Shown here: one piece after another, positions 2,387 through 58,795 of the stretch
Position numbering within the stretch: position 1 is the stretch's first letter
How the letters are laid out: every line of letters starts with the position of its first letter
Assembly (NCBI GenBank): GCA_947628145.1
Contig: CANQYU010000002.1
Span: forward strand, 1 to 58,795
Reading direction: 5' to 3'
Length of the DNA: 58,795 bases
Source of the DNA: an uncultured Bacilli bacterium
GTDB taxonomy: Bacteria > Bacillota_I > Bacilli_A > RF39 > UBA660
Position numbers and translations under genes: made by a program
The notes under the pieces: model-generated
What the model saw: the letters and a program-made list of their open reading frames with translations, nothing else
Databases searched by the model: none
Told to the model about the DNA's origin: nothing

Positions 2387-2749
2387 TGGTGCCCAAGGCC
2401 GGACTTGAACCGGCACGAGCTTTAACACCCGCAGGATTTTCTTACTACTATAACTTTCGTTACCAAACAATTATGTTTGTAGTCTGGACTTTCTCTTTAC
2501 CATATCTTACGACTTAGGTATTGCCCATTAAGTCTCTACACCTTATTTACGATTTTTAATTTTGAATATTTTAGTTTCAAAACTACTCCGTAAATCTTGG
2601 CTCGGGATTGCCATCAGCGTTATCTGTAAGGTTTCCCCGAATTTGAGCAAATTCACATAATTTATTTCTAAATTAGTGCTCAAGGCCTTCCTCTAAAATT
2701 AAGTAAGAGGCCATAAGTCCTGTGCGTCTACCTATTCCGCCACTTGGGC
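2387..2749 (-). tRNA. trnL: tRNA-Leu (anticodon UAA) interrupted by a group I intron; exons 2715-2749 and 2387-2440
   Basis: The 5' exon is GCCCAAGTGGCGGAATAGGTAGACGCACAGGACTT. The 3' exon is AAAATCCTGCGGGTGTTAAAGCTCGTGCCGGTTCAAGTCCGGCCTTGGGCACCA. Joined, they give an 89-nt class II tRNA with a 7-bp acceptor stem, a CAGGA/TCCTG anticodon stem and loop CTTAAAA. Confidence 0.9.
2441..2714 (-). ncRNA. Group I intron (trnL-UAA type) inserted between U34 and A35
   Basis: The 274-nt insert follows a U and ends in G. The internal guide AGGCCTTGAG pairs with CTT|ATGGCCT and places a G.U pair at the splice site. Core blocks are CTCAAATTCGGGGAAACC, GGCAATCCCGAGCCAAG, GGTGTAGAGACTTAATGGG and AAGAGAAAGTCC, as in cyanobacterial/plastid trnL introns. 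Confidence 0.85.
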
Positions 2750-2780
2750 AGGCACTTGTCTTAATTAATAAGACTATTTA

Positions 2781-2809
2781 AGTATAATATGTTTTTAAAA
2801 GTTTTGCAA
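2781..2809 (-). promoter_or_regulatory. Putative promoter of the intron-containing tRNA-Leu gene
   Basis: The minus strand reads TTGCAA-17 nt-TATACT, about 30 nt upstream of tRNA position 1. Confidence 0.5.
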
Positions 2810-2844
2810 GCTTTTTTGTATATTTTTTAATAAAAAAGCGGAAC

Positions 2845-4692
2845 TTATTCAGATATATTAGTTATTTTACTTAAATTATAAGTGACAGATAGAATATTTT
2901 CATTTAAAATAAAGTCTTCATCAGCAATTGTGATTTCAGTTTGGAAATAATTATTTAAAGCAGCAATGATTTCTTGCATTTCATTTTTTATTTCAAGCAT
3001 AGCCATTTCATCACTTGGATTTTCTAATTCTTTAGTTAGATTAATTGTTAAATGAGCTTCAATATTAGTAAAACTAATAGTAATATTATTAGAAATTGGA
3101 GTTGCTAGTAAGTTGGTTAAAATATTTAACTTTAAGTTACTTTCCCCTTCTAAATTACTTAGATTTAATATTAAATAATAATTTTTTTCAGGTTCATATA
3201 GAATATAATAATCATTAAAAGTTAGGGGTTCTTCTTTAGAAATATTTGCAATATAAGGTTTAAATAAAGTATCCTCACTTAGTGTTTTAGCATAATTTTC
3301 AGATAAAATATCTTGATAATTTGTAATTAGGTAATTATATATTTTTTCAGAATAATTTATAGTTGGCTCTTCTATTGGAGGCTCGCTTGGGTTAGTTGGC
3401 TTTTCATCGCCTGATTCTTCAGGAGTAGGAGTTTTTTCCTCTTCTTTTGGTTCGGTTAAAGATGGACTTTCTAGGGACGGGCCACTTATTATTGGAGGTT
3501 CATTTTGAGAATTTTTATAGGTTAAGGCATTATTTTTTATAGTTTCAATGTCTACTAAAAATTGATAATAAGGAGCGATTGAATCCCTAGTTTTTACAAA
3601 TCCGTCTAATTCATTATTATTTAATACAAAATAAGAAATACCTTGATTTTCAGATTTGGCATTAATATAATCCAACACATCTTGTTTATCTTGACCTTCT
3701 AGGCCATAATATTCCGTTAAATAATAATCAAAGGCGTCATTAATATCTTTTGATTTTTCAGATGAAAAATATACAAACATATTATTATTAAGATAATTAG
3801 TTCTGGCATAGCCAACAAAATTATCGGTAACTTTGATTATATAATAATCAAGATTAGAAGCATCAATATCTAAACCTTTTAATTTTTCAATATTAATCGT
3901 AGATTCATTAATATAATTGCTTAAATATTTATTTATTTCATTATAATATTCTGTATATGGATAATAGTGAGCATCAAACCAATTTAGAATTTCTTCATAT
4001 AAGTTGCGTAATTCTCCTTCTTTTATTTTATTTATTTCAAAGGTTAAGTCTTCATCTCTCATTGGATGTTCAGCTATATATTTACTAAGAATTTCTTCAT
4101 AGCCACCTTTTAAATAAGTAAAGGAACCTTCCCCGACTATTTCTTCTTTTATTTCAATATTTGGCAAATTAATATATTTTTCATTTCCTTTTATAATGGT
4201 AATATCGTTAACTTTACATTTAATGAAAGCTTCAATACGAGTTGTACTCTCTTCATTATAAGATGGGGAGCTAGGGGTATCATATGTAATAGTATTCCCG
4301 GCAATTTTCCCTATATTAACTGGTGTACCTGTTGAATAATCTTTTGATGTAATGCTAGTTATTTCACAAATATTTTTAACACTTTCTGCTAATTTGATTG
4401 TATAAATTTCTTTTGTGTTATCAAAAATTACATTATTACGTTTAAAACTAAGATTGGCTATAAAGTCTTCATAATTACTTTCACTTCCTAAACTAAATTG
4501 TTCAGGGGTAAAAGCTGTATTTTCATGAAGATTAATAAGATTATTTTCAAAAGCTAAAACATAATCTTGGGGTTCTTTAATATATCTAGCAGAAGATTTT
4601 GGAAAAGCATTAAAACATGTTATACCTAAAATTATTAAGGTATAAAGCATAATTTTTAATACTTTAGAATTAGTAAATGATTTTTTTAACAT
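2845..4692 (-). CDS. Secreted protein of unknown function with a SipW-substrate-like N-terminus and a Pro/Glu-rich linker; last gene of the SipW/TasA-like operon
   Basis: 615-aa ORF with RBS GAGGTGG. A hydrophobic N-terminus is followed by SSARYIKEPQDYVLAFEN, which resembles the N-terminal motif of the neighbouring TasA-like proteins. It carries the linker EPPIISGPSLESPSLTEPKEEEKTPTPEESGDEKPTNPSEPPIEEP. Confidence 0.75.
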   Translation of the reverse strand: MLKKSFTNSKVLKIMLYTLIILGITCFNAFPKSSARYIKEPQDYVLAFENNLINLHENTAFTPEQFSLGSESNYEDFIANLSFKRNNVIFDNTKEIYTIKLAESVKNICEITSITSKDYSTGTPVNIGKIAGNTITYDTPSSPSYNEESTTRIEAFIKCKVNDITIIKGNEKYINLPNIEIKEEIVGEGSFTYLKGGYEEILSKYIAEHPMRDEDLTFEINKIKEGELRNLYEEILNWFDAHYYPYTEYYNEINKYLSNYINESTINIEKLKGLDIDASNLDYYIIKVTDNFVGYARTNYLNNNMFVYFSSEKSKDINDAFDYYLTEYYGLEGQDKQDVLDYINAKSENQGISYFVLNNNELDGFVKTRDSIAPYYQFLVDIETIKNNALTYKNSQNEPPIISGPSLESPSLTEPKEEEKTPTPEESGDEKPTNPSEPPIEEPTINYSEKIYNYLITNYQDILSENYAKTLSEDTLFKPYIANISKEEPLTFNDYYILYEPEKNYYLILNLSNLEGESNLKLNILTNLLATPISNNITISFTNIEAHLTINLTKELENPSDEMAMLEIKNEMQEIIAALNNYFQTEITIADEDFILNENILSVTYNLSKITNISE

Positions 4693-4703
4693 ATGACCAC
4701 CTC

Positions 4704-5252
4704 TTATTGTACTTGTTTAGCAGAATAATTTACTTTAACTATATTATATGGTTCATTAGTAATATTTTTATCTGCATCATATTTATATTTAACTCTAATT
4801 TTATATTTACTAGTCTTTCTTGAACCTATGGTTACGGGCATTTTAAAGCTTCCACAATAATAACTATCATTACTTTTTTCAGTATTTTTAGTTACAGTAA
4901 TTTTTTCGTTATTTTCATCAAATATTTCAAAATCAAATTTATTATTAATTAAAACCGTTAAAAATACATCGGTTTTAACATCAAACATATAATCAACAGT
5001 AAAATAATATTCAATATAACTAGTTGGTCTATAATATCCGGTGTTACAATTATTACTTGAAATACATTGATTATCTAAATAATTAATATTTATATCAAAA
5101 GCAGCGACTTTGGCTTCACTACTACCCATCATGGTAGTCATATATTTAGAATAAGTTATAATAGTGGTAAAAAGAGCTATTACTCCTATATACATAACTA
5201 ACCATTTTTTTAAATTTTTCTTAAAAACTTTATTTTGTAATAACTCTTTCAT
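4704..5252 (-). CDS. Small TasA/BsaA-like secreted protein (minor subunit candidate)
   Basis: 182-aa ORF with RBS AGGTGA. A TM/signal segment is followed by ITYSKYMTTMMGSSEAKVAAFDI. The C-terminal ...YNIVKVNYSAKQVQ parallels ...YILNVTVTATQ of the 8889-9575 protein. Confidence 0.75.
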   Translation of the reverse strand: MKELLQNKVFKKNLKKWLVMYIGVIALFTTIITYSKYMTTMMGSSEAKVAAFDININYLDNQCISSNNCNTGYYRPTSYIEYYFTVDYMFDVKTDVFLTVLINNKFDFEIFDENNEKITVTKNTEKSNDSYYCGSFKMPVTIGSRKTSKYKIRVKYKYDADKNITNEPYNIVKVNYSAKQVQ

Positions 5253-5260
5253 ATTCTCAC

Positions 5261-5950
5261 CTACTTCTTTTTATTTTTCTTCTTTCTTTTTTTATTTTTC
5301 TTGGGTTTAGTTTTTTTAACTCTTTTGGTTTTCTTTTTCTTCTTTTTTTGCTTTTTTTCTTTTTTAAATTTATTTTTTATTTTTAATATTAATTCTTTTA
5401 CTTTAGAAAGTTTTGGTTCTTCTTTGGAGGCAATGAATTCTTCTTTTTCTTCTAAAGGCTCTCCAAATCGATTAGTACTAATTAAATAACATATGAGAAT
5501 ACCAATAATTAAAATCATAATACTAACCAGAGGATTACGTAAAGAAGCAAGAATTATACCAACACCACTTAATTTAAAGAGATACTTACCAACAATATTT
5601 TCTTTAGGTAAAGGTTCATCTTCAGTATTATTAGCATCACCTTTAGTAATTATATTTTCTTGATTTAAAGATACTAAACGATGAGTTACAAAGGAGCCAT
5701 TAATATCATAAAAAGTAATTATATCATTTACTTTATAATTTTTTTCTTTAGTATTAATGATTATTAAATCGCCTTCTTTTAAAGTTGGTCGCATAGAACC
5801 AGTGGCAACTTCTAAAATAGCATATCCATTTATGGTTGGTAGAGCTTTTTTAAATATTTTTAAACTGATAAAATTATATAAATTAAATAATAATATTAAA
5901 CTTAAAATAATTGTTATAATAGTTGTTAATAGTTTCTTAAGCTTTTTCAT
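5261..5950 (-). CDS. sipW: Signal peptidase I, archaeal/ER (SipW) type, paralog 2, with a poly-lysine C-terminal tail
   Basis: 229 aa with an N-terminal TM, the ATGSMRPTL Ser box, THRLV His box, KGDANN box and a second TM. The tail is KKEKKQKKKKKKTKRVKKTKPKKNKKRKKKNKKK. The ATGA start overlaps the upstream stop. Confidence 0.85.
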   Translation of the reverse strand: MKKLKKLLTTIITIILSLILLFNLYNFISLKIFKKALPTINGYAILEVATGSMRPTLKEGDLIIINTKEKNYKVNDIITFYDINGSFVTHRLVSLNQENIITKGDANNTEDEPLPKENIVGKYLFKLSGVGIILASLRNPLVSIMILIIGILICYLISTNRFGEPLEEKEEFIASKEEPKLSKVKELILKIKNKFKKEKKQKKKKKKTKRVKKTKPKKNKKRKKKNKKK

Positions 5951-8706
5951 GGTGTTTCCTCACAAGTGTTATCGATTGTTTCAAAATCTAATCTTACGGT
6001 TAATTCATAAATGGTATTACCTTGCTCAGCAGCCATAATGCCAATTTTAGTATCGGCTATGTCATCTTTTTCTATCCATTTCCAAAAAAGGATTATTTCT
6101 ATAGCTTCCCCATTACTAACGGAAATAAATGGGTCATTATCGGTTACTAATGGAACATCAGCGACATGGTTATCTTCATTTAAAATTTTATAATTATCTT
6201 GATTTGATTTATATTCGCCATAATAGTAGTAGGTTTTAGCTTCTATTTTAGGACTATACTTAAAGATATATCCCATATTTAAACATTTATTATTAACACA
6301 TACTTCATTTTCAGTTAAATTAATATTGGTTAAATTAATGGTTTTTCCACTATTATTATTGATAACCATGGTATATGAACCTTTAGCACCAGGATAAATA
6401 ACTTTATCTTGACCATATTTTTGTTCATATTCCTCATTATGGAATAAATCTACTTCAGTTAAATATAAAGATTTAGAATTAAAGTTTTTTTCGAACGTCT
6501 CTTTTTCATTATAGATAGCATATAAATATAAATTGCTATCTATTTCTATTTCTTCTAAACTATAAGTTTTTCCTTTTCCATCAGTTTCAGTATTATAACT
6601 TGCAATTTCATAATATTTACAATTATCGGTTGCTTTATAAGCAAGTTCATTAGCTAAATTTAAAGTACTTCCTTTAGCTAAAGTGTATTCTTTAATGGTA
6701 GTAAATTCATCATAAAAGCCTCCATTAGCATTTAAAGTAACAAGATATTTTTCATTAACATTAATTGTAATATCTAATTCTTTTACATAATTAGGAGCTA
6801 TACCTTCAATATGAATTTGATACTTGCCTTCTTGTTTAGCTCTAACTTTAAAACTTAAAGAAGTATTACCATTATCATTATTAAAAGTAATTTCTAAAGC
6901 TTCACGATTATAGGAAATATTTATACAAATATTAGGTTCTAATTCCGAACATATTTTTAAATTACCATCAATTTCTTCAACTTTGACTTTACCTAGGAAA
7001 AAGTTAGTATTTAAAACTATATTTTTTTCACCAGTTTCATTTAATAGAGATAAATCATATGTATCACTATAAGTTGTTAGATAATAATTATGACTTAAGA
7101 ACTGTAAGTTAGTAGAAGAACTCGTAGAAGCATCTTCATAATTTAAAGTTAAAGTAGTTTTTTTATCAGCAAAATTAGCTTGAGGGGTAACTTTTATTTC
7201 GCCTTTGGTTAATTCTATATTATTTTGATATAAACTTTCGATTTCCATCTTAATATCATTTAAATCATAATCTGTAATAGGTGTTCCCTCTTCGTCAATA
7301 CTATATTTTATAATAATTGAACCATCTTCTAAATAAATGATATATTCTTCTTTTTCAAAAATAATATTTCTAATTTTACGATGAACTGTTACGGTATAAG
7401 TAGTAGAACTAGTACCATTAGAAACTTCAATTTCAATTTGATTATCTCCTGGTTGTAATTGAAAGTCTTTTAAATTACTAGAGGTTTTACCATTATAGTG
7501 ATATTTTATTTCATTATTTCTATTTTCGGGTGTACCACTTAAAGTTAATTCATTTTGATTAAAAGGAACATCAACCGTATAATTAAAGCGATTTTTATTA
7601 AATTCTTCGTTAAATTTAAAATCCTCAGTTATTTCGAGATTTTCTAAATATGGTTTTTGAACTGAACCTGAAGAACCAGAAGATGGAGAATTTTTGCGTT
7701 CAATAGTTACTTCATATGTAGAACTTGTTCCATCCTCCGCGGTGACAGTTATTTCTAATTTATTGTTACCTACTTGTAATTCTAAATTTTTTAAATCCGA
7801 AACCTCTTTTCCATTAAATTTGTAGGTTAAAGTAGATTTAGAACTTGATGGGAAAGCTTCAAAACTAACTTTGTCTTGAGAATTAGAAACGCCTAAATAA
7901 TACTTATAAACATTACTTTTAAAATCTAAAGAACCAACCGAACTAGTTAAAGCTTTTAAATTATGATTACTTTCTAAATTATTTTTACTATCTGTAATAT
8001 ATACTTTATAAGTAGTGGTGTATTCTTTACCCTCATAAATTACTTTTAAAGTAATAGTTGTATTACCTTTTTTTAAACCAGTTATTTTTAAAATACCATT
8101 TTTAGCACTAGCACTCACAATATTTTTGTCATTTATAATTACTTTAACATCACCAATTAAATTTATTAAATTATAAGTAACATTTTTAATTTTATTTTCA
8201 TTTAAATATATAGTTCCTTTAGGACTTGATAATAAAATATAGCGATTACTTTCTTTAATATTTATTTCGGTTTTAGCTTGATATTTTTCACCATTAGCTT
8301 TAGTTTCTAAGATAATATTTACTTTACCTACTTGTTTAGGATTTACAACTACATATCCATCTTTTACATAACAAGTGGCAATATCAGCATTAGATGTAAT
8401 ACAAGTAAATTCTTTAGGATTAATATTTTTATAAGTATAAGTGATTTTTAAATTAGTATCGCTTAAATACATATTTACGTTTGACGTATCAAAACGTAAA
8501 TATGTATTTATATTAATTTTTTCTTCGTTAGTATCACTATTTATATCAAACTCGCCTTTATTTTCAAAAATATTACCTATTCTACCCCATAACTTAGAGG
8601 TACAACTGCAACTGGTAATTAGAGAAATAATTATAATGATAATAATAATTAATATCATTATTCGTCTTTTAGTTTTGTTACTATCTCTTTTATTATCATT
8701 ATCCAT
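5947..8706 (-). CDS. Large multidomain surface protein: N-terminal TM/possible lipobox, Ig-like repeats, two cadherin-like beta-sandwich repeats, a Listeria-Bacteroides-type repeat and a C-terminal TasA-like domain
   Basis: 919-aa ORF with RBS AAAGGAGAAA. Repeats ending ...LQVGNNKLEITVTAEDGTSSTYEVTIERK and ...LQPGDNQIEIEVSNGTSSTTYTVTVHRK are present, as is YLVTLNANGG...NLYLYAIY. The C-terminal VIYPGAKGSYTMVINN...ILFWKWIEKDDIADTKIGI...YELTVRLDF parallels the protein at 8889-9575. Confidence 0.85.
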   Translation of the reverse strand: MDNDNKRDSNKTKRRIMILIIIIIIIISLITSCSCTSKLWGRIGNIFENKGEFDINSDTNEEKININTYLRFDTSNVNMYLSDTNLKITYTYKNINPKEFTCITSNADIATCYVKDGYVVVNPKQVGKVNIILETKANGEKYQAKTEINIKESNRYILLSSPKGTIYLNENKIKNVTYNLINLIGDVKVIINDKNIVSASAKNGILKITGLKKGNTTITLKVIYEGKEYTTTYKVYITDSKNNLESNHNLKALTSSVGSLDFKSNVYKYYLGVSNSQDKVSFEAFPSSSKSTLTYKFNGKEVSDLKNLELQVGNNKLEITVTAEDGTSSTYEVTIERKNSPSSGSSGSVQKPYLENLEITEDFKFNEEFNKNRFNYTVDVPFNQNELTLSGTPENRNNEIKYHYNGKTSSNLKDFQLQPGDNQIEIEVSNGTSSTTYTVTVHRKIRNIIFEKEEYIIYLEDGSIIIKYSIDEEGTPITDYDLNDIKMEIESLYQNNIELTKGEIKVTPQANFADKKTTLTLNYEDASTSSSTNLQFLSHNYYLTTYSDTYDLSLLNETGEKNIVLNTNFFLGKVKVEEIDGNLKICSELEPNICINISYNREALEITFNNDNGNTSLSFKVRAKQEGKYQIHIEGIAPNYVKELDITINVNEKYLVTLNANGGFYDEFTTIKEYTLAKGSTLNLANELAYKATDNCKYYEIASYNTETDGKGKTYSLEEIEIDSNLYLYAIYNEKETFEKNFNSKSLYLTEVDLFHNEEYEQKYGQDKVIYPGAKGSYTMVINNNSGKTINLTNINLTENEVCVNNKCLNMGYIFKYSPKIEAKTYYYYGEYKSNQDNYKILNEDNHVADVPLVTDNDPFISVSNGEAIEIILFWKWIEKDDIADTKIGIMAAEQGNTIYELTVRLDFETIDNTCEETP

Positions 8707-8770
8707 AGTATTTCTCCTTTCTTTATTTTAAGTATTAAACTCTCAAATAAAGATATACTATAAATAAGCT

Positions 8771-8854
8771 AATAATAAGTACTTATTATTAATAAAGATG
8801 TATATCTTTATTAATAATAAGTACTTATTATTAATAAAGATGTATATCTTTATT
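8771..8854. repeat. Perfect tandem duplication of a 42-bp unit, each unit holding two palindromes
   Basis: AATAATAAGTACTTATTATTAATAAAGATGTATATCTTTATT occurs twice (8771-8812 and 8813-8854). It contains the palindrome AATAATAAGTACTTATTATT and the stem AATAAAGAT/ATCTTTATT. It sits between the TasA-like gene and the 919-aa gene. Confidence 0.9.
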
Positions 8855-8855
8855 T

Positions 8856-8874
8856 GGAAGTTTAATTAACTTCC
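8856..8874 (-). other. 7-bp stem-loop directly after the TasA-like stop codon
   Basis: GGAAGTT-TAATT-AACTTCC. There is no U-tract on the minus strand, so it is not a canonical terminator. Confidence 0.5.
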
Positions 8875-8888
8875 TTTTGTGAATAGCT

Positions 8889-9575
8889 TTATTCAGCAGT
8901 AGCAGGTGCTTGAGTAGCTGTTACAGTTACATTAAGAATATAATCTGTTCTGTTAGCGTTGGCAGATGCAATTCCTAAAGCAGTATCTGTTTTACCATCT
9001 TGGCCATCTTCATACGGCCATTCCCAAACTATAAATAATTTTTTTTCTTCTGCGCCAAAATTTTGTAATAAAGTATCCTCAGAAATTTTAGCTTCTTCAG
9101 CTAAAGTATAAGTATGGCCTGAACCACCAATTGTTTTTCCTTCAAATGACTCTGTTGGTGGCGTTTTAGTTCCTGAATCTTCTAAAATAAGGGTATATTT
9201 TAGAGGAACAGTTGATGCAGTTCCTGTTGCTTTTAAGGCTAATGAAATATTAGCTTTTACATCAGACTCATTTTTTAATGAAATAACTGCCCATCCTTTA
9301 GAACCAGGAGCAATAATTTCACTATCATTATCAGTATCACTTATAAGACTGTTATTTTTTTCATTTTGAGCATTTTTAAATATTTCAAAATCAAATGATG
9401 CTTCCTCCACAGTTCCTTCTGTTTCGTCTACAGTAAATTTCCATTTTGCTATTTTAGCTGTATCTGATGTACCTGTAAAAGTGCTTGTATATTTAGCATA
9501 TGTACCTGCAACTGAATAACCAGTAACTAATACAGCTGCTAATAATACAGCTAAAACGATTAATTTCTTTTTCAT
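8889..9575 (-). CDS. TasA/BsaA-like secreted matrix/fibre protein (major subunit candidate) with a SipW-type signal peptide
   Basis: The start is taken at the ATG preceded by AAAGGAGGTGAAACA; the upstream part of the ORF encodes that RBS. The sequence is MKKKLIVLAVLLAAVLVTGYSVAGTYAKYTSTF..., then IIAPGSKGWAVISLKN and ...FIVWEWPYEDG...DTALGI...YILNVTVTATQ. GC content looks locally higher than in the neighbours. Confidence 0.85.
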   Translation of the reverse strand: MKKKLIVLAVLLAAVLVTGYSVAGTYAKYTSTFTGTSDTAKIAKWKFTVDETEGTVEEASFDFEIFKNAQNEKNNSLISDTDNDSEIIAPGSKGWAVISLKNESDVKANISLALKATGTASTVPLKYTLILEDSGTKTPPTESFEGKTIGGSGHTYTLAEEAKISEDTLLQNFGAEEKKLFIVWEWPYEDGQDGKTDTALGIASANANRTDYILNVTVTATQAPATAE

Positions 9576-9688
9576 TGTTTCACCTCCTTTATATTTATAT
9601 TTTTGCATAAATTTTTAGTATAGGAATTTATGCTTATTCCTAATCTATGTAAACGTCATAAGACTGTTTACCTAATTTAATTTTAAGA

Positions 9689-10309
9689 CTATTTAGTCTT
9701 TTTTTCAATGGAAGAATTTGTCTCTTCTTCTTTCATACGTTTATATTCTAAATATTCTTGATGTTCTAAATCTCTTTGTTTTTTAGTAGAAATTGTAAAA
9801 CCAAGAATAAAGATAATTGTTATACCTAATAATAATATTATAATAGTTGTAGGTTCAGATAAACTTTTCATTAAAGAACCTATTCCTGGTATTCTTAAAA
9901 CATATATACCTTCAACATCTTCATATTCAACTAAGTTTTGGTCTTGAGTATTGTTATTATCTCCTTTAGTAATAAAATAATTAATGCCCTCATCTTCTAC
10001 AATATCAATTATTCTATGGGTAGTAACTGTTTCTTCACTATCTTTAAAAGCAATTATATCATTTACTTTTAAAGTTTCGGGTTTAACTATTTTAGTTATA
10101 ATTAAATCACCAGTGTAAATTTCTGTTTCCATAGAACCTGATAAAACAATAAATGGTTTATAACCAAAAATACTTGGTACTTTATCAGGATTATGATGGG
10201 ATTGATAAATTATATAAATATTAATTAATAATATGGGAATTAATATTATACATATTGCGATAATTAACCAATTACTAAATTTTTGATACCACTTTTTTTC
10301 TTTTTTCAT
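9689..10309 (-). CDS. sipW: Signal peptidase I, archaeal/ER (SipW) type, paralog 1
   Basis: 206 aa with an N-terminal TM, LSGSMETEI Ser box, THRII His box, KGDNNN box and a C-terminal TM. Its ATG overlaps the upstream stop as TAATG. Confidence 0.9.
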   Translation of the reverse strand: MKKEKKWYQKFSNWLIIAICIILIPILLINIYIIYQSHHNPDKVPSIFGYKPFIVLSGSMETEIYTGDLIITKIVKPETLKVNDIIAFKDSEETVTTHRIIDIVEDEGINYFITKGDNNNTQDQNLVEYEDVEGIYVLRIPGIGSLMKSLSEPTTIIILLLGITIIFILGFTISTKKQRDLEHQEYLEYKRMKEEETNSSIEKKTK

Positions 10310-12318
10310 TACTTCATACCTCTTTCATTTTTCTTTGTTAAAACTAACATTACCGGTTTATTTTCGTCGGGTAAATAATTTATTTGTTGTGGTTTTTCTT
10401 CAGGTTCAGAGTTTACTAAAGGTCTAGAATAACCACATGTCATACATATTTCTTCATTTTTATAAACCATAAAATTATGAGTTGTATTATATTTGATATT
10501 AACCCAGCCACAGTCTTTACAAGCATTGGTTACTGTCTCACAAATTTCAGCAGTACCTATAATTTCTCTATTATCTCTTAAGGTGTGAACGTGAGTTTGA
10601 ACTCTTTCATAAGCACAACCATCATTAGTACATTTATAAGTTATGGCGCCTTCTGCAGATAATAAAGTTTCAAGATTATGGGCACGATTTGTGGTTTTTC
10701 CACATTCACAACTTAAAGTTTCTTGTGTTTCATTATAACTCTGAACTTGCCAATTATGAGTGTGATATTCGGTTTTTTGATATCCACATTCTGGATGAAT
10801 ACATTTATAAGTCATTGAATAATCATCTGGATTTCTTGTACCACTATCTAAAGAATGAGGAATGGTTGTAGTTTCATTACAGCTACAAGCCCAATACTCA
10901 TAATTATCGTCATATTTCTCAAAAATATTAAATTTATGAACATGAGGTGGCTCAGTAGTTTTTTGATAGCCACATCCTGGATTAATACATTCATAAGTGG
11001 TAGAACCATCAGCATTAAGAGTTGATTTAAGATTATGAGAAGCTTTTTTGGTTATGCCACAAGAACATTCTAAATATTCATAATCAGCATCAAAATTTGT
11101 AATTACAAAACTATGCGTATGAGTTGGTTTTACTATTTTTTCATAATTGCAACCTTTATTCTCACAGCTATAAACTATAGAGCCATCGCTTCTCGGACTG
11201 CCGGGCGATAGTTTATGCATAACCTTATTTAACTGGCCACAACTGCAAGCCCAATATTCATAATTATCGTCATAATTTTGAAGCTTAGTATAATCATGGG
11301 TATGTTTTAGAGTATTTTTATAATCACACTCGGGGTTGGTACATTTATAAGTGATTGAGCCATCTTGGCCAACTATTTCTTCTAAATTATGAGGTATTTC
11401 GGTAGTTTTACCACATACACAAGCTTTAGTTTCGCCATTTTCATTATAAGACTTTAAAAGATTATAATTATGATTATGTTCTTTAGTTTCTATATAATTA
11501 AATTCTAAACATCTTCGTTCATCTTCATTAGTCTTAGGATTATATGTCCAATCAGTAAAAGTTAATTTTTTAGATTCTTCTAAAATAATTAATTCATTAC
11601 CACAATTTTCACAAACTTTAGTAGTAATAATTTTATAAGTTCCATTTTCATAATCAGGTATTTTATTACTAATTTCTTTATATAAATGTTCTCTTGTTTC
11701 GATTTCCTCACATACACATTGGCGAATTTCTTGAGCATTATTAAAGTTTTCCCATTCACCAAATTGATGGGTATGAGGACGCGTTTCAATGTAATCTAAT
11801 TCGTGACATTTTCGTTCGTCTTGTTTAGTCTCAGGATTATATGTCCAATCAGTAAAAGTTAACTCAATATTAGAAGACGAAACTAAAATTTCGTGATGAC
11901 AAGTAGAACAAACTTTTTTAATAATAGCTGTCAGAGTGTCGTCTTCATAACTAGGTAATTCCAAGATTTCTTCTTCATAATTATGAGTTCGCGTTTTTGT
12001 GGCACCACATGAACAGGTTTGAATTTCTTCTTTGTCATTTAAAGCTTCCCAAGCTCCATATTCATGGTTATGAGTTTCAGGTTCTAACGGCTGATTAACT
12101 TGAGGAGGCTCAGGTTTGACCTCGGGCTCTTTAGGTTTATTAGTGTCTTCAGGTTTACTAGGTTCTAAGGAAGGATTTAAATCGTCTTCATAAGAAATAC
12201 TAGGTTCGGTTGGTTCTTCCTCTTCTTTTTTAGAACATCCTCCCACGCCTAAAGTGATGGCTGTAGCTAAAAGAAAAGCAGCACCTCTTTTTAAAATATA
12301 TTTGGATTTTTTTTCCAT
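10309..12318 (-). CDS. Lipoprotein with a Pro/Glu-rich tether and about 8 His/Cys-rich repeat modules (putative metal-binding); first gene of the operon
   Basis: 669 aa. The signal peptide and lipobox are LATAITLGVGGC. Modules follow the pattern HxH-x(12-18)-CxC-x(7-9)-H-x(10-16)-Y.C-x(3-4)-C.Y. Two are about 99 aa and the others about 58 aa. Confidence 0.85.
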   Translation of the reverse strand: MEKKSKYILKRGAAFLLATAITLGVGGCSKKEEEEPTEPSISYEDDLNPSLEPSKPEDTNKPKEPEVKPEPPQVNQPLEPETHNHEYGAWEALNDKEEIQTCSCGATKTRTHNYEEEILELPSYEDDTLTAIIKKVCSTCHHEILVSSSNIELTFTDWTYNPETKQDERKCHELDYIETRPHTHQFGEWENFNNAQEIRQCVCEEIETREHLYKEISNKIPDYENGTYKIITTKVCENCGNELIILEESKKLTFTDWTYNPKTNEDERRCLEFNYIETKEHNHNYNLLKSYNENGETKACVCGKTTEIPHNLEEIVGQDGSITYKCTNPECDYKNTLKHTHDYTKLQNYDDNYEYWACSCGQLNKVMHKLSPGSPRSDGSIVYSCENKGCNYEKIVKPTHTHSFVITNFDADYEYLECSCGITKKASHNLKSTLNADGSTTYECINPGCGYQKTTEPPHVHKFNIFEKYDDNYEYWACSCNETTTIPHSLDSGTRNPDDYSMTYKCIHPECGYQKTEYHTHNWQVQSYNETQETLSCECGKTTNRAHNLETLLSAEGAITYKCTNDGCAYERVQTHVHTLRDNREIIGTAEICETVTNACKDCGWVNIKYNTTHNFMVYKNEEICMTCGYSRPLVNSEPEEKPQQINYLPDENKPVMLVLTKKNERGMK

Positions 12319-12357
12319 ATAATATAACCCCTTTCTTAGGCATTAAAAAGTAATTCT

Positions 12358-12385
12358 ATTATACATGAAATTGATTTTATGTCAA
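12358..12385 (-). promoter_or_regulatory. Sigma-A-type promoter of the lipoprotein-SipW-TasA-like operon
   Basis: The minus strand reads TTGACA-16 nt-TATAAT, about 40 nt upstream of the lipoprotein ATG. Confidence 0.6.
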
Positions 12386-12392
12386 ATTAAAT

Positions 12393-12740
12393 TTAAGTAT
12401 TTTTATTTATTTCATTTATTTTTTCGTTAATCCAAATATTTAAATTTTCTTTTAAAGGAAGAAAGCCATTAGTATCGCGTTCTTCCATACTTTTACCATC
12501 AACTTTATAATTAATATTTTTAATAGATAATTTTAAATGTTTAGTTTCTTCGTCGACATCAATTATTGAGGCATAGATTGTTTCGCCAATTTCACCATAA
12601 TCATTAACATTACGAACAAAGCTTTCTGATATTTCCGAAATATGAATTAAACCATCATAATCAGGAGATACTTTAACAAATATGCCATATTCTTTAAAGC
12701 CTGTGATAGTGCATTTTATAATATCACCTTTTTTATACAT
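12393..12740 (-). CDS. S1 RNA-binding domain protein (YugI/GSP13-like)
   Basis: 115 aa. GDIIKCTITGFKEYGIFVKV...YDGLIHISEIS..FV is a typical S1 fold signature. Confidence 0.8.
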   Translation of the reverse strand: MYKKGDIIKCTITGFKEYGIFVKVSPDYDGLIHISEISESFVRNVNDYGEIGETIYASIIDVDEETKHLKLSIKNINYKVDGKSMEERDTNGFLPLKENLNIWINEKINEINKNT

Positions 12741-12820
12741 AATATTTCACCAATTAAATTATAACATATTTAGCTTTACTTTAGTATTTTTTTAAATTAT
12801 AATGGTTTTGGTGACATTTT

Positions 12821-13045
12821 ATGGACAATAAAATTAAAGAATTAATTGATGATTTAAGGCCCCTTTTACAACAAGATGGTGGAGATATAGAGTTTATTAG
12901 ATATGAAGATAATTATGTCTTTATAAAACTTAAAGGAGCTTGTGCTAATTGTGGATTTCAAGATAATACTATAAGTTTTGGAATTGAAAATTATTTAAAA
13001 GAACAAATACCAGAAATTGAAGGAGTTATAAATGTTGATTTATAA
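12821..13045 (+). CDS. NifU C-terminal-domain (Nfu/YutI-like) Fe-S cluster protein
   Basis: 74 aa with LRPLLQQDGGDIEF and the CxxC motif in LKGACANCG. Confidence 0.85.
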   Translation: MDNKIKELIDDLRPLLQQDGGDIEFIRYEDNYVFIKLKGACANCGFQDNTISFGIENYLKEQIPEIEGVINVDL

Positions 13046-13969
13046 TTCCTTTTTTAAAAGCCATTCTATTCTTTCTATGGGCGCGTATTTACTTATTTCA
13101 TAGTAAGCTTTTTTTAAAAATATTTCATAATCATTAGCTTTTTCAATAATAGGAATTAATTTTTCTTCCTCTTCTTCTTTATTCATAATTTCCTCATATA
13201 AATCAAAATAATAAGTGGGATATAAAAGACGAGCATATAATAAAGATAAACTATAAATAGAAAAAGGTTGCTCTTTTAAAGCTTCTTTTAAATAACTTAA
13301 AGCATCTTCTTCGGCAAAGAAAGAACTTTTAATATACTCAGCAATATCGCGAACTTCATAATCAAAAATAAAACTTAAAGGATTTAAATAATTTAAATAA
13401 TAATTAGGATATTTAATCCGACGATGAGATAAGACTATTTTATCTAGAGATGTTTGTTTATATTTGTTTAAAGTATTTGTAACATAACTGATGGCATTTT
13501 CACCTAAACCAATATAATAACTAAAACTATCTAAAATAATATTTTTATCTTTACCTAATTCAGAGATTTGATACTCAAAATAATCAATTTTATCACTCCA
13601 AAGTTTAGCCCAAGAAATACGATATAAATTACTTTTATTAGGGGTTAAAACTAAACTACTACTTATTTTCATTAATTCAATTAAAGATATTTCATTAGTA
13701 TTATTAGGGATAGGTCTTAATAAACAATAATTAGTATTATAAACATTAGTTATAAGCTTACCAAAAATATTAGGGATAAATTCATGAACATTTATACCTC
13801 TAGTTCGTAGTTCTTCACATACACTTAAAATATCTTTTAATTCTTTTTCATTACGATTAAAAGGAACAAAATAATATTCAATGTTATTTAAAGTAAAAGT
13901 ATAAATATAATCCCATTTTTCTAAATCAGCAATATTTAAATTATAATAGTAATTTAAGCTCTCTTTCAT
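13040..13969 (-). CDS. CotS-family spore coat protein kinase-like (YutH-like)
   Basis: 309 aa. It resembles the ORF at 16623-17519 and the CotS/YutH family, and it is convergent with a yutI-like gene, as I recall for Bacillus. The assignment is by eye only. Confidence 0.55.
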   Translation of the reverse strand: MKESLNYYYNLNIADLEKWDYIYTFTLNNIEYYFVPFNRNEKELKDILSVCEELRTRGINVHEFIPNIFGKLITNVYNTNYCLLRPIPNNTNEISLIELMKISSSLVLTPNKSNLYRISWAKLWSDKIDYFEYQISELGKDKNIILDSFSYYIGLGENAISYVTNTLNKYKQTSLDKIVLSHRRIKYPNYYLNYLNPLSFIFDYEVRDIAEYIKSSFFAEEDALSYLKEALKEQPFSIYSLSLLYARLLYPTYYFDLYEEIMNKEEEEEKLIPIIEKANDYEIFLKKAYYEISKYAPIERIEWLLKKEL

Positions 13970-58741: not shown

Positions 58742-58795
58742 TGGTGGCTCGCGAGAGATTCGAACTCTCGACCCTTTGATTAAAAGTCAAATGCT
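58742..58795 (-). tRNA. tRNA-Lys (anticodon UUU), 5' part cut by window edge
   Basis: Reverse complement reads ...AGCATTTGACTTTTAATCAAAGGGTCGAGAGTTCGAATCTCTCGCGAGCCACCA, with anticodon loop CTTTTAA, a T-arm and CCA. Confidence 0.85.

Follow-up and report, generated by a model that had tools for sequence, protein, structure and literature searches.

What would a surface protein made almost wholly of cysteine- and histidine-rich repeats be doing at the head of a SipW operon? The question is raised by an open reading frame (ORF) of 669 amino acids (aa), given by the ORF list at 10309..12318 on the minus strand of a 58,795-nucleotide (nt) stretch of DNA from an uncultured Bacilli bacterium (contig CANQYU010000002.1), the whole of which we refer to as the window. 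Unless otherwise stated, all features described below also lie on the minus strand.

On balance, we favor the reading that this protein is a lipid-anchored, zinc-stapled stalk or anchor of variable length for a SipW-dependent surface assembly. By this mechanism, an N-terminal lipid anchor would be followed by a Pro/Glu-rich tether of ~54 residues and then by ~18 beta-sheet units in line, with one structural Zn(II) stapling each unit junction, up to 16 sites per molecule. The junction into each module would be held by HxH and CxC, and the junction within it by a Glu (a His in the wider family), a His and CxxxxC. The product would be a rigid spacer or anchor, its length depending on the species, that holds or nucleates the SipW-processed assembly away from the membrane, with a disordered C-terminal peptide, KPxxLxLxKK, docking to that assembly. 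The anchoring, spacing or nucleating role is suggested by the position of the gene in its operon, its coupling to sipW and this C-terminal motif. Rival explanations, in which the modules are Cys4 zinc ribbons or disulfide-bonded repeats, or in which the protein is a metal reservoir or an independent adhesin, are each less consistent with the data.

The module array and its homologs

The protein contains 36 Cys (5.4%) and 28 His (4.2%) residues, and HxH recurs in it eight times, at residues 83, 182, 281, 339, 400, 459, 519 and 576. The region singled out by the first-pass annotation of this DNA, window 10429-12072, corresponds to residues 83-630, i.e. to the module array. That annotation had counted two modules of about 99 aa, five of about 58 aa and one variant, and the spacing of the HxH motifs bears it out: two modules are 99 aa long, five are 57-61 aa, and one is a variant. 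Each of the seven regular modules also has an invariant Glu four residues ahead of CxC, which had been left off the earlier list of conserved residues. A hidden Markov model (HMM) built from the five short modules re-detected each of them at independent E-values (i-E) of 1e-31 to 1e-33, and it also matched the first halves of both long modules (i-E 1e-9 and 4e-8); the repeat is therefore far beyond chance. Repeats had been reported in the DNA as well, and these are real: positions 10879-10938 are 78% identical to 11239-11298, and 11486-11565 are 85% identical to 11783-11862, with a spacing of 297 nt, or 99 aa. The modules share 35-50% identity as protein and 60-85% as DNA. Tandem Repeats Finder lists a single row within the ORF, a trivial repeat of 6 nt in 3.2 copies, so at the DNA level the modules are not a tandem array.

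Upstream of the array, residues 1-28 (12235..12318) make up a signal peptide with the lipobox LGVGGC. The longer string ATAITLGVGGC, ending in Cys28, fits a PROSITE-style rule, and AlphaFold2 (AF2) places a helix at residues 3-22, within the signal peptide. Judged by this signal peptide and its lipobox Cys, the protein would be a bacterial lipoprotein, and many of its homologs have a canonical L-S/T-G-C box. Residues 29-82 (12073..12234), of which 12 are Pro and 16 are Asp or Glu, form a tether that is disordered by composition and in the AF2 model. Motif positions, the HMM and the lipobox rule thus confirm the described arrangement of a lipobox, a Pro/Glu tether and eight modules with HxH, CxC, an isolated His and CxxxxC.

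Is the module found elsewhere? Scans of the whole protein against Pfam and NCBIfam gave nothing above noise (only sub-threshold matches to Pfam zinc ribbons), and phmmer found no match to it among PDB sequences. A word-indexed homolog search returned only two relatives and under-reported the family compared with an exhaustive profile search. We used two profiles: A2, a narrow profile of the module in the target subfamily, and A4, a profile of three modules. The exhaustive HMMER search with A2 matched 280 cluster representatives at E<=1e-3, of which 74 reached <=1e-10 and 23 reached <=1e-30. The distant matches come from large proteins that bear extracellular domains such as dockerin, cohesin, BspA-type LRR, Big_3, lipase and GDPD, and their module consensus reads H..G.W...D...H...C.CG......H.W..G.VT..PT....G..TYTC..CG.TKTE. 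Proteins that carry the module are mostly large extracellular Firmicutes proteins. The number of modules, which we counted in the homologs, runs from 3 to 12, so stalk length would vary between species.

Against PDB sequences, A4 gave one significant match, 9qa6_A, annotated "IgA protease" (E 2.2e-8). A2 aligned end-to-end with the ZBD2 region of this protein (positions 1-56 of 60, 15 bits) with all ligand columns matched, and in the reverse direction ZBD2 matched 69 of the 150 proteins retrieved with A2. On profile evidence that is solid but transitive, the module is homologous to ZBD1 and ZBD2 (also named CTD2 and CTD4) of the Thomasclavelia ramosa IgA protease (IgAse, UniProt Q9AES2), which two papers described in 2025. 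The first, which named the regions ZBD1 and ZBD2, described chains of three-stranded antiparallel up-and-down sheets, ~110 A per three subdomains, with putative tetrahedral 2His+2Cys sites (one of them 3Cys+1His) at the subdomain interfaces of artificial intelligence (AI) models; its authors call the zinc sites "putative ... pending experimental validation" (PMC12237041). The second, which named the domains CTD2 and CTD4, found by small-angle X-ray scattering that isolated CTD2 is a fully extended rod, proposed an uncharacterized metal-associated "periscope" domain that projects the enzyme away from the cell surface, and speculated that environmental zinc may regulate function (PMC12415215).

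These descriptions and the wide distribution of the domain make the array less unusual than it first appeared. The first-pass annotation had considered a lipid-anchored extracellular array odd on the grounds that Cys/His arrays are normally intracellular; this does not hold, as the module occurs in the 280 cluster representatives, mostly extracellular, and was already in the literature (PMC12237041, PMC12415215). The domain is common in gut Firmicutes but uncurated, and its zinc binding is putative even in the IgA protease. What sets the target apart is that it is the purest known array of this domain, with distinctive predicted ligands (Glu and HxH), a probable N-terminal lipid anchor and a conserved place at the head of a SipW operon.

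The fold of the units was modeled with AF2. For residues 281-465 (modules 3-5), modeled with the module-triplet alignment, the mean pLDDT (the score predicted for the local distance difference test) was 94.3, and each module consisted of six short strands, i.e. two three-stranded units. In the full-length model, residues 181-636 consist throughout of short strands at pLDDT 82-94, residues 23-82 are a disordered tether, and the predicted template modeling score (pTM) of 0.30 is as expected of an elongated chain. The units are thus confidently modeled as three-stranded antiparallel up-and-down beta sheets, presumably placed end to end, about 18 of them in the target at ~29 aa each. If they are scaled from the published 110 A per three subdomains, ~18 units would give a stalk of roughly 45-65 nm. 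A Foldseek search of the PDB with the three-module model gave no real match, returning generic beta-repeats (propellers, TCP10, MORN) at TM-scores of 0.11-0.24.

Candidate metal sites at the unit junctions

If the protein is a chain of such sheets, where would its metal sites lie? In an up-and-down unit, the residue that precedes strand 1 shares one end with the knuckle that follows strand 2, and the opposite end is shared by the beginning of strand 2 and the residue that follows strand 3. Applied to the DSSP pattern of the model, this rule places HxH and CxC at the junction at which a module is entered, and Glu16, His30 and CxxxxC (module numbering) at the junction inside the module. The predicted sites agree with the published description of "sites at subdomain interfaces" (PMC12237041). 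An initial ligand grouping, H3/E16/C20/C22 plus H30/C46/C51/H1', was dropped, as residue 16 lies at the far end of strand 2 from CxC and the grouping also clashed with the published description of junction sites.

Variation within the family bears on the same question. Across 589 modules, the position four residues before Cys1 is His in 393, Glu in 171 and Asp in 9. The spacing of the Cys pairs is variable (CxC or CxxC for one, CxxC or CxxxxC for the other), and Cys2 is swapped for Asp in some homologs. Near mutual exclusion holds between the first His of HxH or HxxH and a Cys or His in the preceding unit's hairpin. Counted per junction, the numbers are 13/137/152/42, with an odds ratio of 0.03 that is inflated by relatedness; counted per protein, where this inflation is smaller, the odds ratio is 0.04 (p 3e-12). 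Such exclusion is what would be expected if the fourth ligand at the inter-module site can come from either residue. The topology of the strands and the covariation of the ligands favor two predicted junction-bridging sites per module, which zinc would presumably occupy in the target as in the domain generally. The resulting 16-site model accounts for 33 of the 35 mature Cys and 24 of the 28 His. Also included in it are the invariant Glu of every regular module (seven of seven) and Cys593 of the last module.

Along the protein, these candidate sites are distributed as follows. Long module 1 (residues 83-181, 11776..12072) was located with the short-module HMM, and long module 2 (residues 182-280, 11479..11775) with the HMM and AF2. 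Module 1 comprises unit A, the long unit B' with CxxC, and a third unit that is degenerate, and its proposed ligands are H83, H85, E98, C102, C104, H112, C137 and C140; those proposed for module 2 are H182, H184, E197, C201, C203, H211, C236 and C239. The third unit of each long module has a single Cys left (Cys171 at 11806-11808, Cys270 at 11509-11511), and the third unit of the homologs has an additional Cys where the module-initial His sits (C.F..W…C); in the target's long modules, the metal site of the third unit seems to have decayed. Five short modules, all recognized by both HMM and AF2, come next: module 3 (residues 281-338, 11305..11478), module 4 (residues 339-399, 11122..11304), module 5 (residues 400-458, 10945..11121), module 6 (residues 459-518, 10765..10944) and module 7 (residues 519-575, 10594..10764). 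The array closes with a variant cap, module 8 (residues 576-636, 10411..10593), delimited by AF2 and by ligand count. Its proposed ligands are H576, H578, C593, C600, C603, H614, C625 and C628, with C593 proposed to take the place of the Glu ligand, and the cap site of the 16-site model (C593, H614, C625 and C628) is accordingly 3Cys+1His. Beyond it lies a disordered acidic tail (residues 637-669, 10312..10410), to which AF2 gives pLDDT 40-55 and no secondary structure.

Could each module instead be a classical ribbon of the TFIIS/RPA12 type, with C20, C22, C46 and C51 on one zinc and the His residues in a separate role, for instance a second, labile metal site or pH sensing? The best match of A2 to a solved structure is indeed to RPA12, in its C-terminal zinc ribbon of the TFIIS type, with a borderline score (E 0.005, 20 bits). 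The motif-level alignment, C.CG...H.L....G...Y.C..C.Y, matches the knuckle-to-knuckle spacing, and subdomain I of the IgA protease has been noted to resemble the TFIIS zinc domain distantly (PMC12237041). "Zinc-ribbon-like", the label of the first-pass annotation, is therefore a fair one. AF2, however, splits the stretch between the knuckles into two strands that belong to different sheets, so that the second knuckle comes to lie next to His30 and not next to the first knuckle. A Cys4 site would also leave unexplained the invariant HxH, His30 and Glu/His16, as well as the covariation between the hairpin Cys or His and the first His of the next module, and the published AI models put 2His+2Cys at the junctions (PMC12237041). 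We consider the Cys4 explanation rather improbable, and continue with junction-bridging sites as the preferred assignment.

With four Cys per module in a fixed order, and an extracytoplasmic location, the array could alternatively be a metal-free surface repeat stabilized by two disulfides per module. Here, ligand-type His and Glu residues are conserved as strongly as the Cys, the members of a Cys pair are separated by 1, 2 or 4 residues, Asp stands in for Cys in some homologs, and the alternative fourth ligands covary. Conserved ligand-type residues, varying spacing and covariation together argue against disulfides, as they do against a simple Cys4 ribbon. The homologous IgA protease, moreover, has no disulfides despite its 24 Cys, and requires reducing agent for monodispersity (PMC12237041). 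The hosts are gut metagenome-assembled genomes (MAGs; rabbit "Lapin" and mouse MGBC), presumably of anaerobes. In anaerobes, extracytoplasmic disulfide formation is generally limited. Disulfide stabilization is thus highly improbable in our view. The first-pass annotation had left the choice between metal sites and disulfides in each module open; metal binding is very probable given the ZBD homology, whereas disulfides are disfavored by the conservation of His and Glu, by spacing and by covariation.

Metal sites need not be structural, and the array could act as a surface reservoir, scavenger or sensor of zinc or another metal instead of a stalk. Up to 16 predicted sites per molecule would suit such a role, sites with Glu may be more labile than His-containing ones, and regulation by environmental zinc has been the subject of speculation (PMC12415215). 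Set against this, the conserved gene cluster contains no metal transporter or regulator, the module serves elsewhere as a spacer between enzymatic, adhesive or anchoring domains, and fully coordinated Cys/His sites are typical of structural zinc (PMC12415215). A reservoir is very unlikely on these grounds, and the idea of a metal sink, which the first-pass annotation had put forward, finds no support in the genomic context. Structural sites in a stalk remain the assignment that we prefer.

The SipW operon and the C-terminal motif

A promoter-like sequence, TTGACA-16-TATAAT (12358..12385), lies 40 nt upstream of the target ATG; it is a perfect sigma-70 consensus and the sole 12/12 match in window 2500-13100 (10.6 kb). 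The ATG is preceded by a ribosome-binding site, AAAGGGG, 9 nt ahead. The target appears to head its own transcription unit, without read-through from the S1-domain gene. The gene that follows, at 9689..10309, encodes a SipW-type signal peptidase (TIGR02228). The target stop overlaps the sipW start (TAATG), and the sipW ribosome-binding site, GAAAGAGG, lies inside the last codons of the target, for E-R-G (window 10307-10335, minus strand). The target is thus translationally coupled to sipW.

We found that the gene order is conserved. The target heads a cluster of seven genes, and the same order, with the module-array protein always first, is complete in four MAG loci (L004, L005, L017 and L018) and partial in three others (L001, L002 and L016). 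The upstream neighbors in L001 are the same as in the window (NifU and an S1-domain protein), and those in L017, L018 and L002/L005 differ. One of the complete clusters, in L004 (CAZSXH010000011.1), comes from a contig labeled "uncultured Muribaculaceae", yet it is a full Bacilli-type seven-gene SipW cluster with ~31% identity to the target; the contig is probably mis-binned.

This context bears on a further explanation, that the protein is an independent adhesin or surface spacer whose placement before sipW is incidental. The module is found in many unrelated surface proteins, and the target gene has its own promoter, both of which an incidental placement would accommodate. It would not account for a gene order kept in at least seven loci, three of them with different upstream neighbors, or for the stop/start overlap with its embedded sipW ribosome-binding site. 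The C-terminal motif, too, is found mainly in the close family (the top 60 matches), and the operon in 7 of the 7 loci examined. We therefore judge an incidental placement unlikely, and a stalk or anchor dedicated to the SipW-dependent assembly the better reading.

The C-terminal motif in question is KPVMLVLTKK in the target (residues 654-663, 10330..10359), and it is conserved in close homologs. The family consensus, KPxxLxLxKK, is found in ~29 of the 60 best representatives, with variants such as PVMLVLTKK in the target and PYTLVRKK, PLTLTLKK and KVLTLKLEGRC in homologs. It is part of an architecture shared by the close homologs, namely an N-terminal anchor (a lipobox in many, a plain hydrophobic segment in others), a cap module, an acidic linker and a short C-terminal motif; the first-pass annotation had missed this shared C-terminal part. 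AF2 leaves the motif disordered, as would be expected of the intermolecular docking peptide that we propose; KPxxLxLxKK is probably a docking element. When we compared the motif with the mature N-termini and last strands of the secreted proteins of the operon, there was no convincing resemblance beyond a generic alternating hydrophobic pattern.

Downstream of sipW lies the gene for a 239-aa secreted protein (8889..9608), identified from the ORF list and from its SipW-type signal junction, GTYAKYT. It is presumed to be the major subunit. Its true start is likely Met12 (MKKKLIV…), and the corresponding entry in the protein collection, P0151, has 228 aa. Its family has in common the invariant motifs GTYAKY, A.VAKW, APG and W.W, with ATQ at the terminus. 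No match to the protein came from Pfam, NCBIfam or, by phmmer and profile searches, PDB sequences. An hhalign comparison with B. subtilis TasA aligned the signal peptide only, GTYAKY with GTWAAF. The family is one of unannotated SipW substrates. The first-pass annotation had placed the target at the head of a fiber operon. That the target heads a SipW operon is borne out by TIGR02228 and synteny; sequence comparison did not show the 239-aa protein to be a TasA homolog, and the fiber is therefore itself presumed.

The remaining genes complete the cluster. A 919-aa protein (5947..8706) has Cadherin-like domains by domain scan, and hhalign relates its C-terminal domain to the 239-aa protein (87%, E 4e-6). 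This protein and its orthologs have an N-terminal hydrophobic segment ending in LITSCSCTS, followed by K..G.IG.LF.N (window 8600-8706, minus strand; 4150-4300 in L004; 15100-15250 in L005). LITSCSCTS is unlike the GTYAKYT junction of the small subunit, and its sequence might mark a processing site, either lipobox-like or of a special kind. Between the two genes, in a gap of 182 nt (the 239-aa gene ends at 8889 and the 919-aa gene starts at 8706), a sequence scan found a perfect AT-rich palindrome of 20 bp (8778..8825, no strand assigned), perhaps an attenuator by which the small subunit would be made in excess of the downstream products. A second SipW-type signal peptidase (5261..5950, TIGR02228) has a long, strongly basic, Lys-rich C-terminal tail (…KKEKKQKKKKKKTKRVKKTKPKKNKKRKKKNKKK); the TIGR02228 scores of the two peptidases are 92.4 and 91.3 bits (cut-off 51.85), and orthologous clusters also retain both SipW paralogs. 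Proteins of 182 and 615 aa (2845..5252), placed by the ORF list and synteny, complete the seven. The remainder of the window has the appearance of ordinary chromosomal housekeeping DNA, at ~27% GC, with tRNA genes at both ends (1-187 and 58745-58795).

Several observations weigh against a zinc-stapled stalk serving a fiber. The lipobox Cys is missing in several close homologs. Zinc sites are still putative for the whole domain, the IgA protease included, and we assign ligands to sites from strand topology, ligand covariation and the AI models in the literature. At one ligand position His is replaced by Glu, which is unusual in a structural site, and the best solved match, a Cys4 ribbon of the TFIIS type, would imply another grouping of ligands. 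Module 1 has low pLDDT in the full-length AF2 model; this is probably an alignment artifact, as its close paralog, module 2, is modeled confidently. The likeness of the 239-aa protein to TasA, as far as its sequence goes, is limited to the signal peptide. Lastly, the conservation of the terminal E-R-G may reflect only the overlapping sipW ribosome-binding site. The ERG- or KEG-like endings that recur in the homologs may likewise reflect a constraint on the nucleotides, not on the protein. The core of hydrophobic residues in the C-terminal motif lies too far upstream to be explained by the ribosome-binding site.

Significance and comparison with known systems

Though widespread, the module domain lacks a solved structure and a model in Pfam or NCBIfam, and the literature has so far treated it only as two accessory domains of one IgA protease. 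A near-pure array of eight modules, with up to 16 predicted sites, is a good object with which zinc binding could be proved or disproved and the fold determined, and the definition of a domain family would annotate hundreds of large surface proteins, among them cellulosomal proteins, LRR adhesins and proteases. The conserved coupling to sipW suggests that SipW-dependent assemblies of uncultured Bacilli have a dedicated membrane anchor unrelated to TapA, a point of relevance to the attachment of TasA-type matrices to cells. Should the stalk be controlled by extracellular zinc staples, then oxidation, or sequestration of zinc by the host, could have a direct effect on surface display.

The IgA protease regions ZBD1 and ZBD2 resemble the target in being extracellular chains of three-stranded up-and-down sheets with Cys and His groups predicted at the junctions, and in their rod-like shape (predicted for the target) and proposed spacer ("periscope") role. 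In the protease, two or three units lie among other domains of a sortase-anchored enzyme, whereas in the target ~18 units are nearly the whole protein, the predicted anchor is an N-terminal lipobox, and the gene lies in a SipW operon. All regular modules of the target have Glu where the protease has one of its predicted His ligands, and the fourth ligand of the inter-module site would be the extra His of HxH in the target and a Cys or His of the preceding hairpin in the protease. The units are also shorter, ~29 aa as opposed to 32-56 aa in the protease subdomains (PMC12237041).

Ribbons of the TFIIS/RPA12/RPB9 type share with the module two Cys knuckles ~24 residues apart that flank a beta hairpin. 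The classical ribbon is a single intracellular Cys4 site; the target module has two predicted sites that contain His or Glu, sits in an extracellular tandem array, and has its knuckles predicted at different ends of the sheets.

TapA (YqxM) of Bacillus subtilis is the counterpart by position. The tapA-sipW-tasA order, including a stop/start overlap, is that of B. subtilis (PMC10151520), and like the target, TapA is encoded by the first gene of its operon, overlapping sipW, with the major SipW substrate encoded next. Both are Cys-containing and membrane-associated (in the target, by its predicted anchor), and both are presumed to be low-abundance accessories to the major subunit. The target gave no Pfam, NCBIfam or PDB sequence match to TapA, and it is built of ZBD modules throughout. 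In TapA, an Ig-fold protein that SipW cleaves, the N-terminal strand complements TasA (PMC10151520); the target has a lipobox and no Ig domain, and its conserved peptide motif is C-terminal, not N-terminal. It is possible, but doubtful, that the target is a functional substitute for TapA, in which module number sets the length of a zinc-stapled stalk and the tail docks by beta-strand complementation into a SipW-processed subunit, thereby nucleating and tethering the fiber. Were this true, a stalk of ~50 nm would be long enough to cross a Gram-positive wall, the surface fiber would be held at a fixed height, and its display would be subject to extracellular zinc and to the gut lumen's redox state. 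A LysM protein encoded in the window suggests that the organism has a peptidoglycan wall.

As a variable-length stalk, finally, the target invites comparison with periscope proteins (the G5-E repeats of SasG/Aap and SHIRT-domain Sgo_0707; PMC8201768, PMC9704523). It differs from these in that its repeats have diverged and are not near-identical, in its predicted internal stabilization by metal, and in that its differences in copy number (3 to 12) are known between species, not within one. In common with them, it has tandem single-layer beta sheets (modeled, in the target) without a hydrophobic core, would form a rod that projects its cargo from a Gram-positive surface, and varies in repeat number between homologs.

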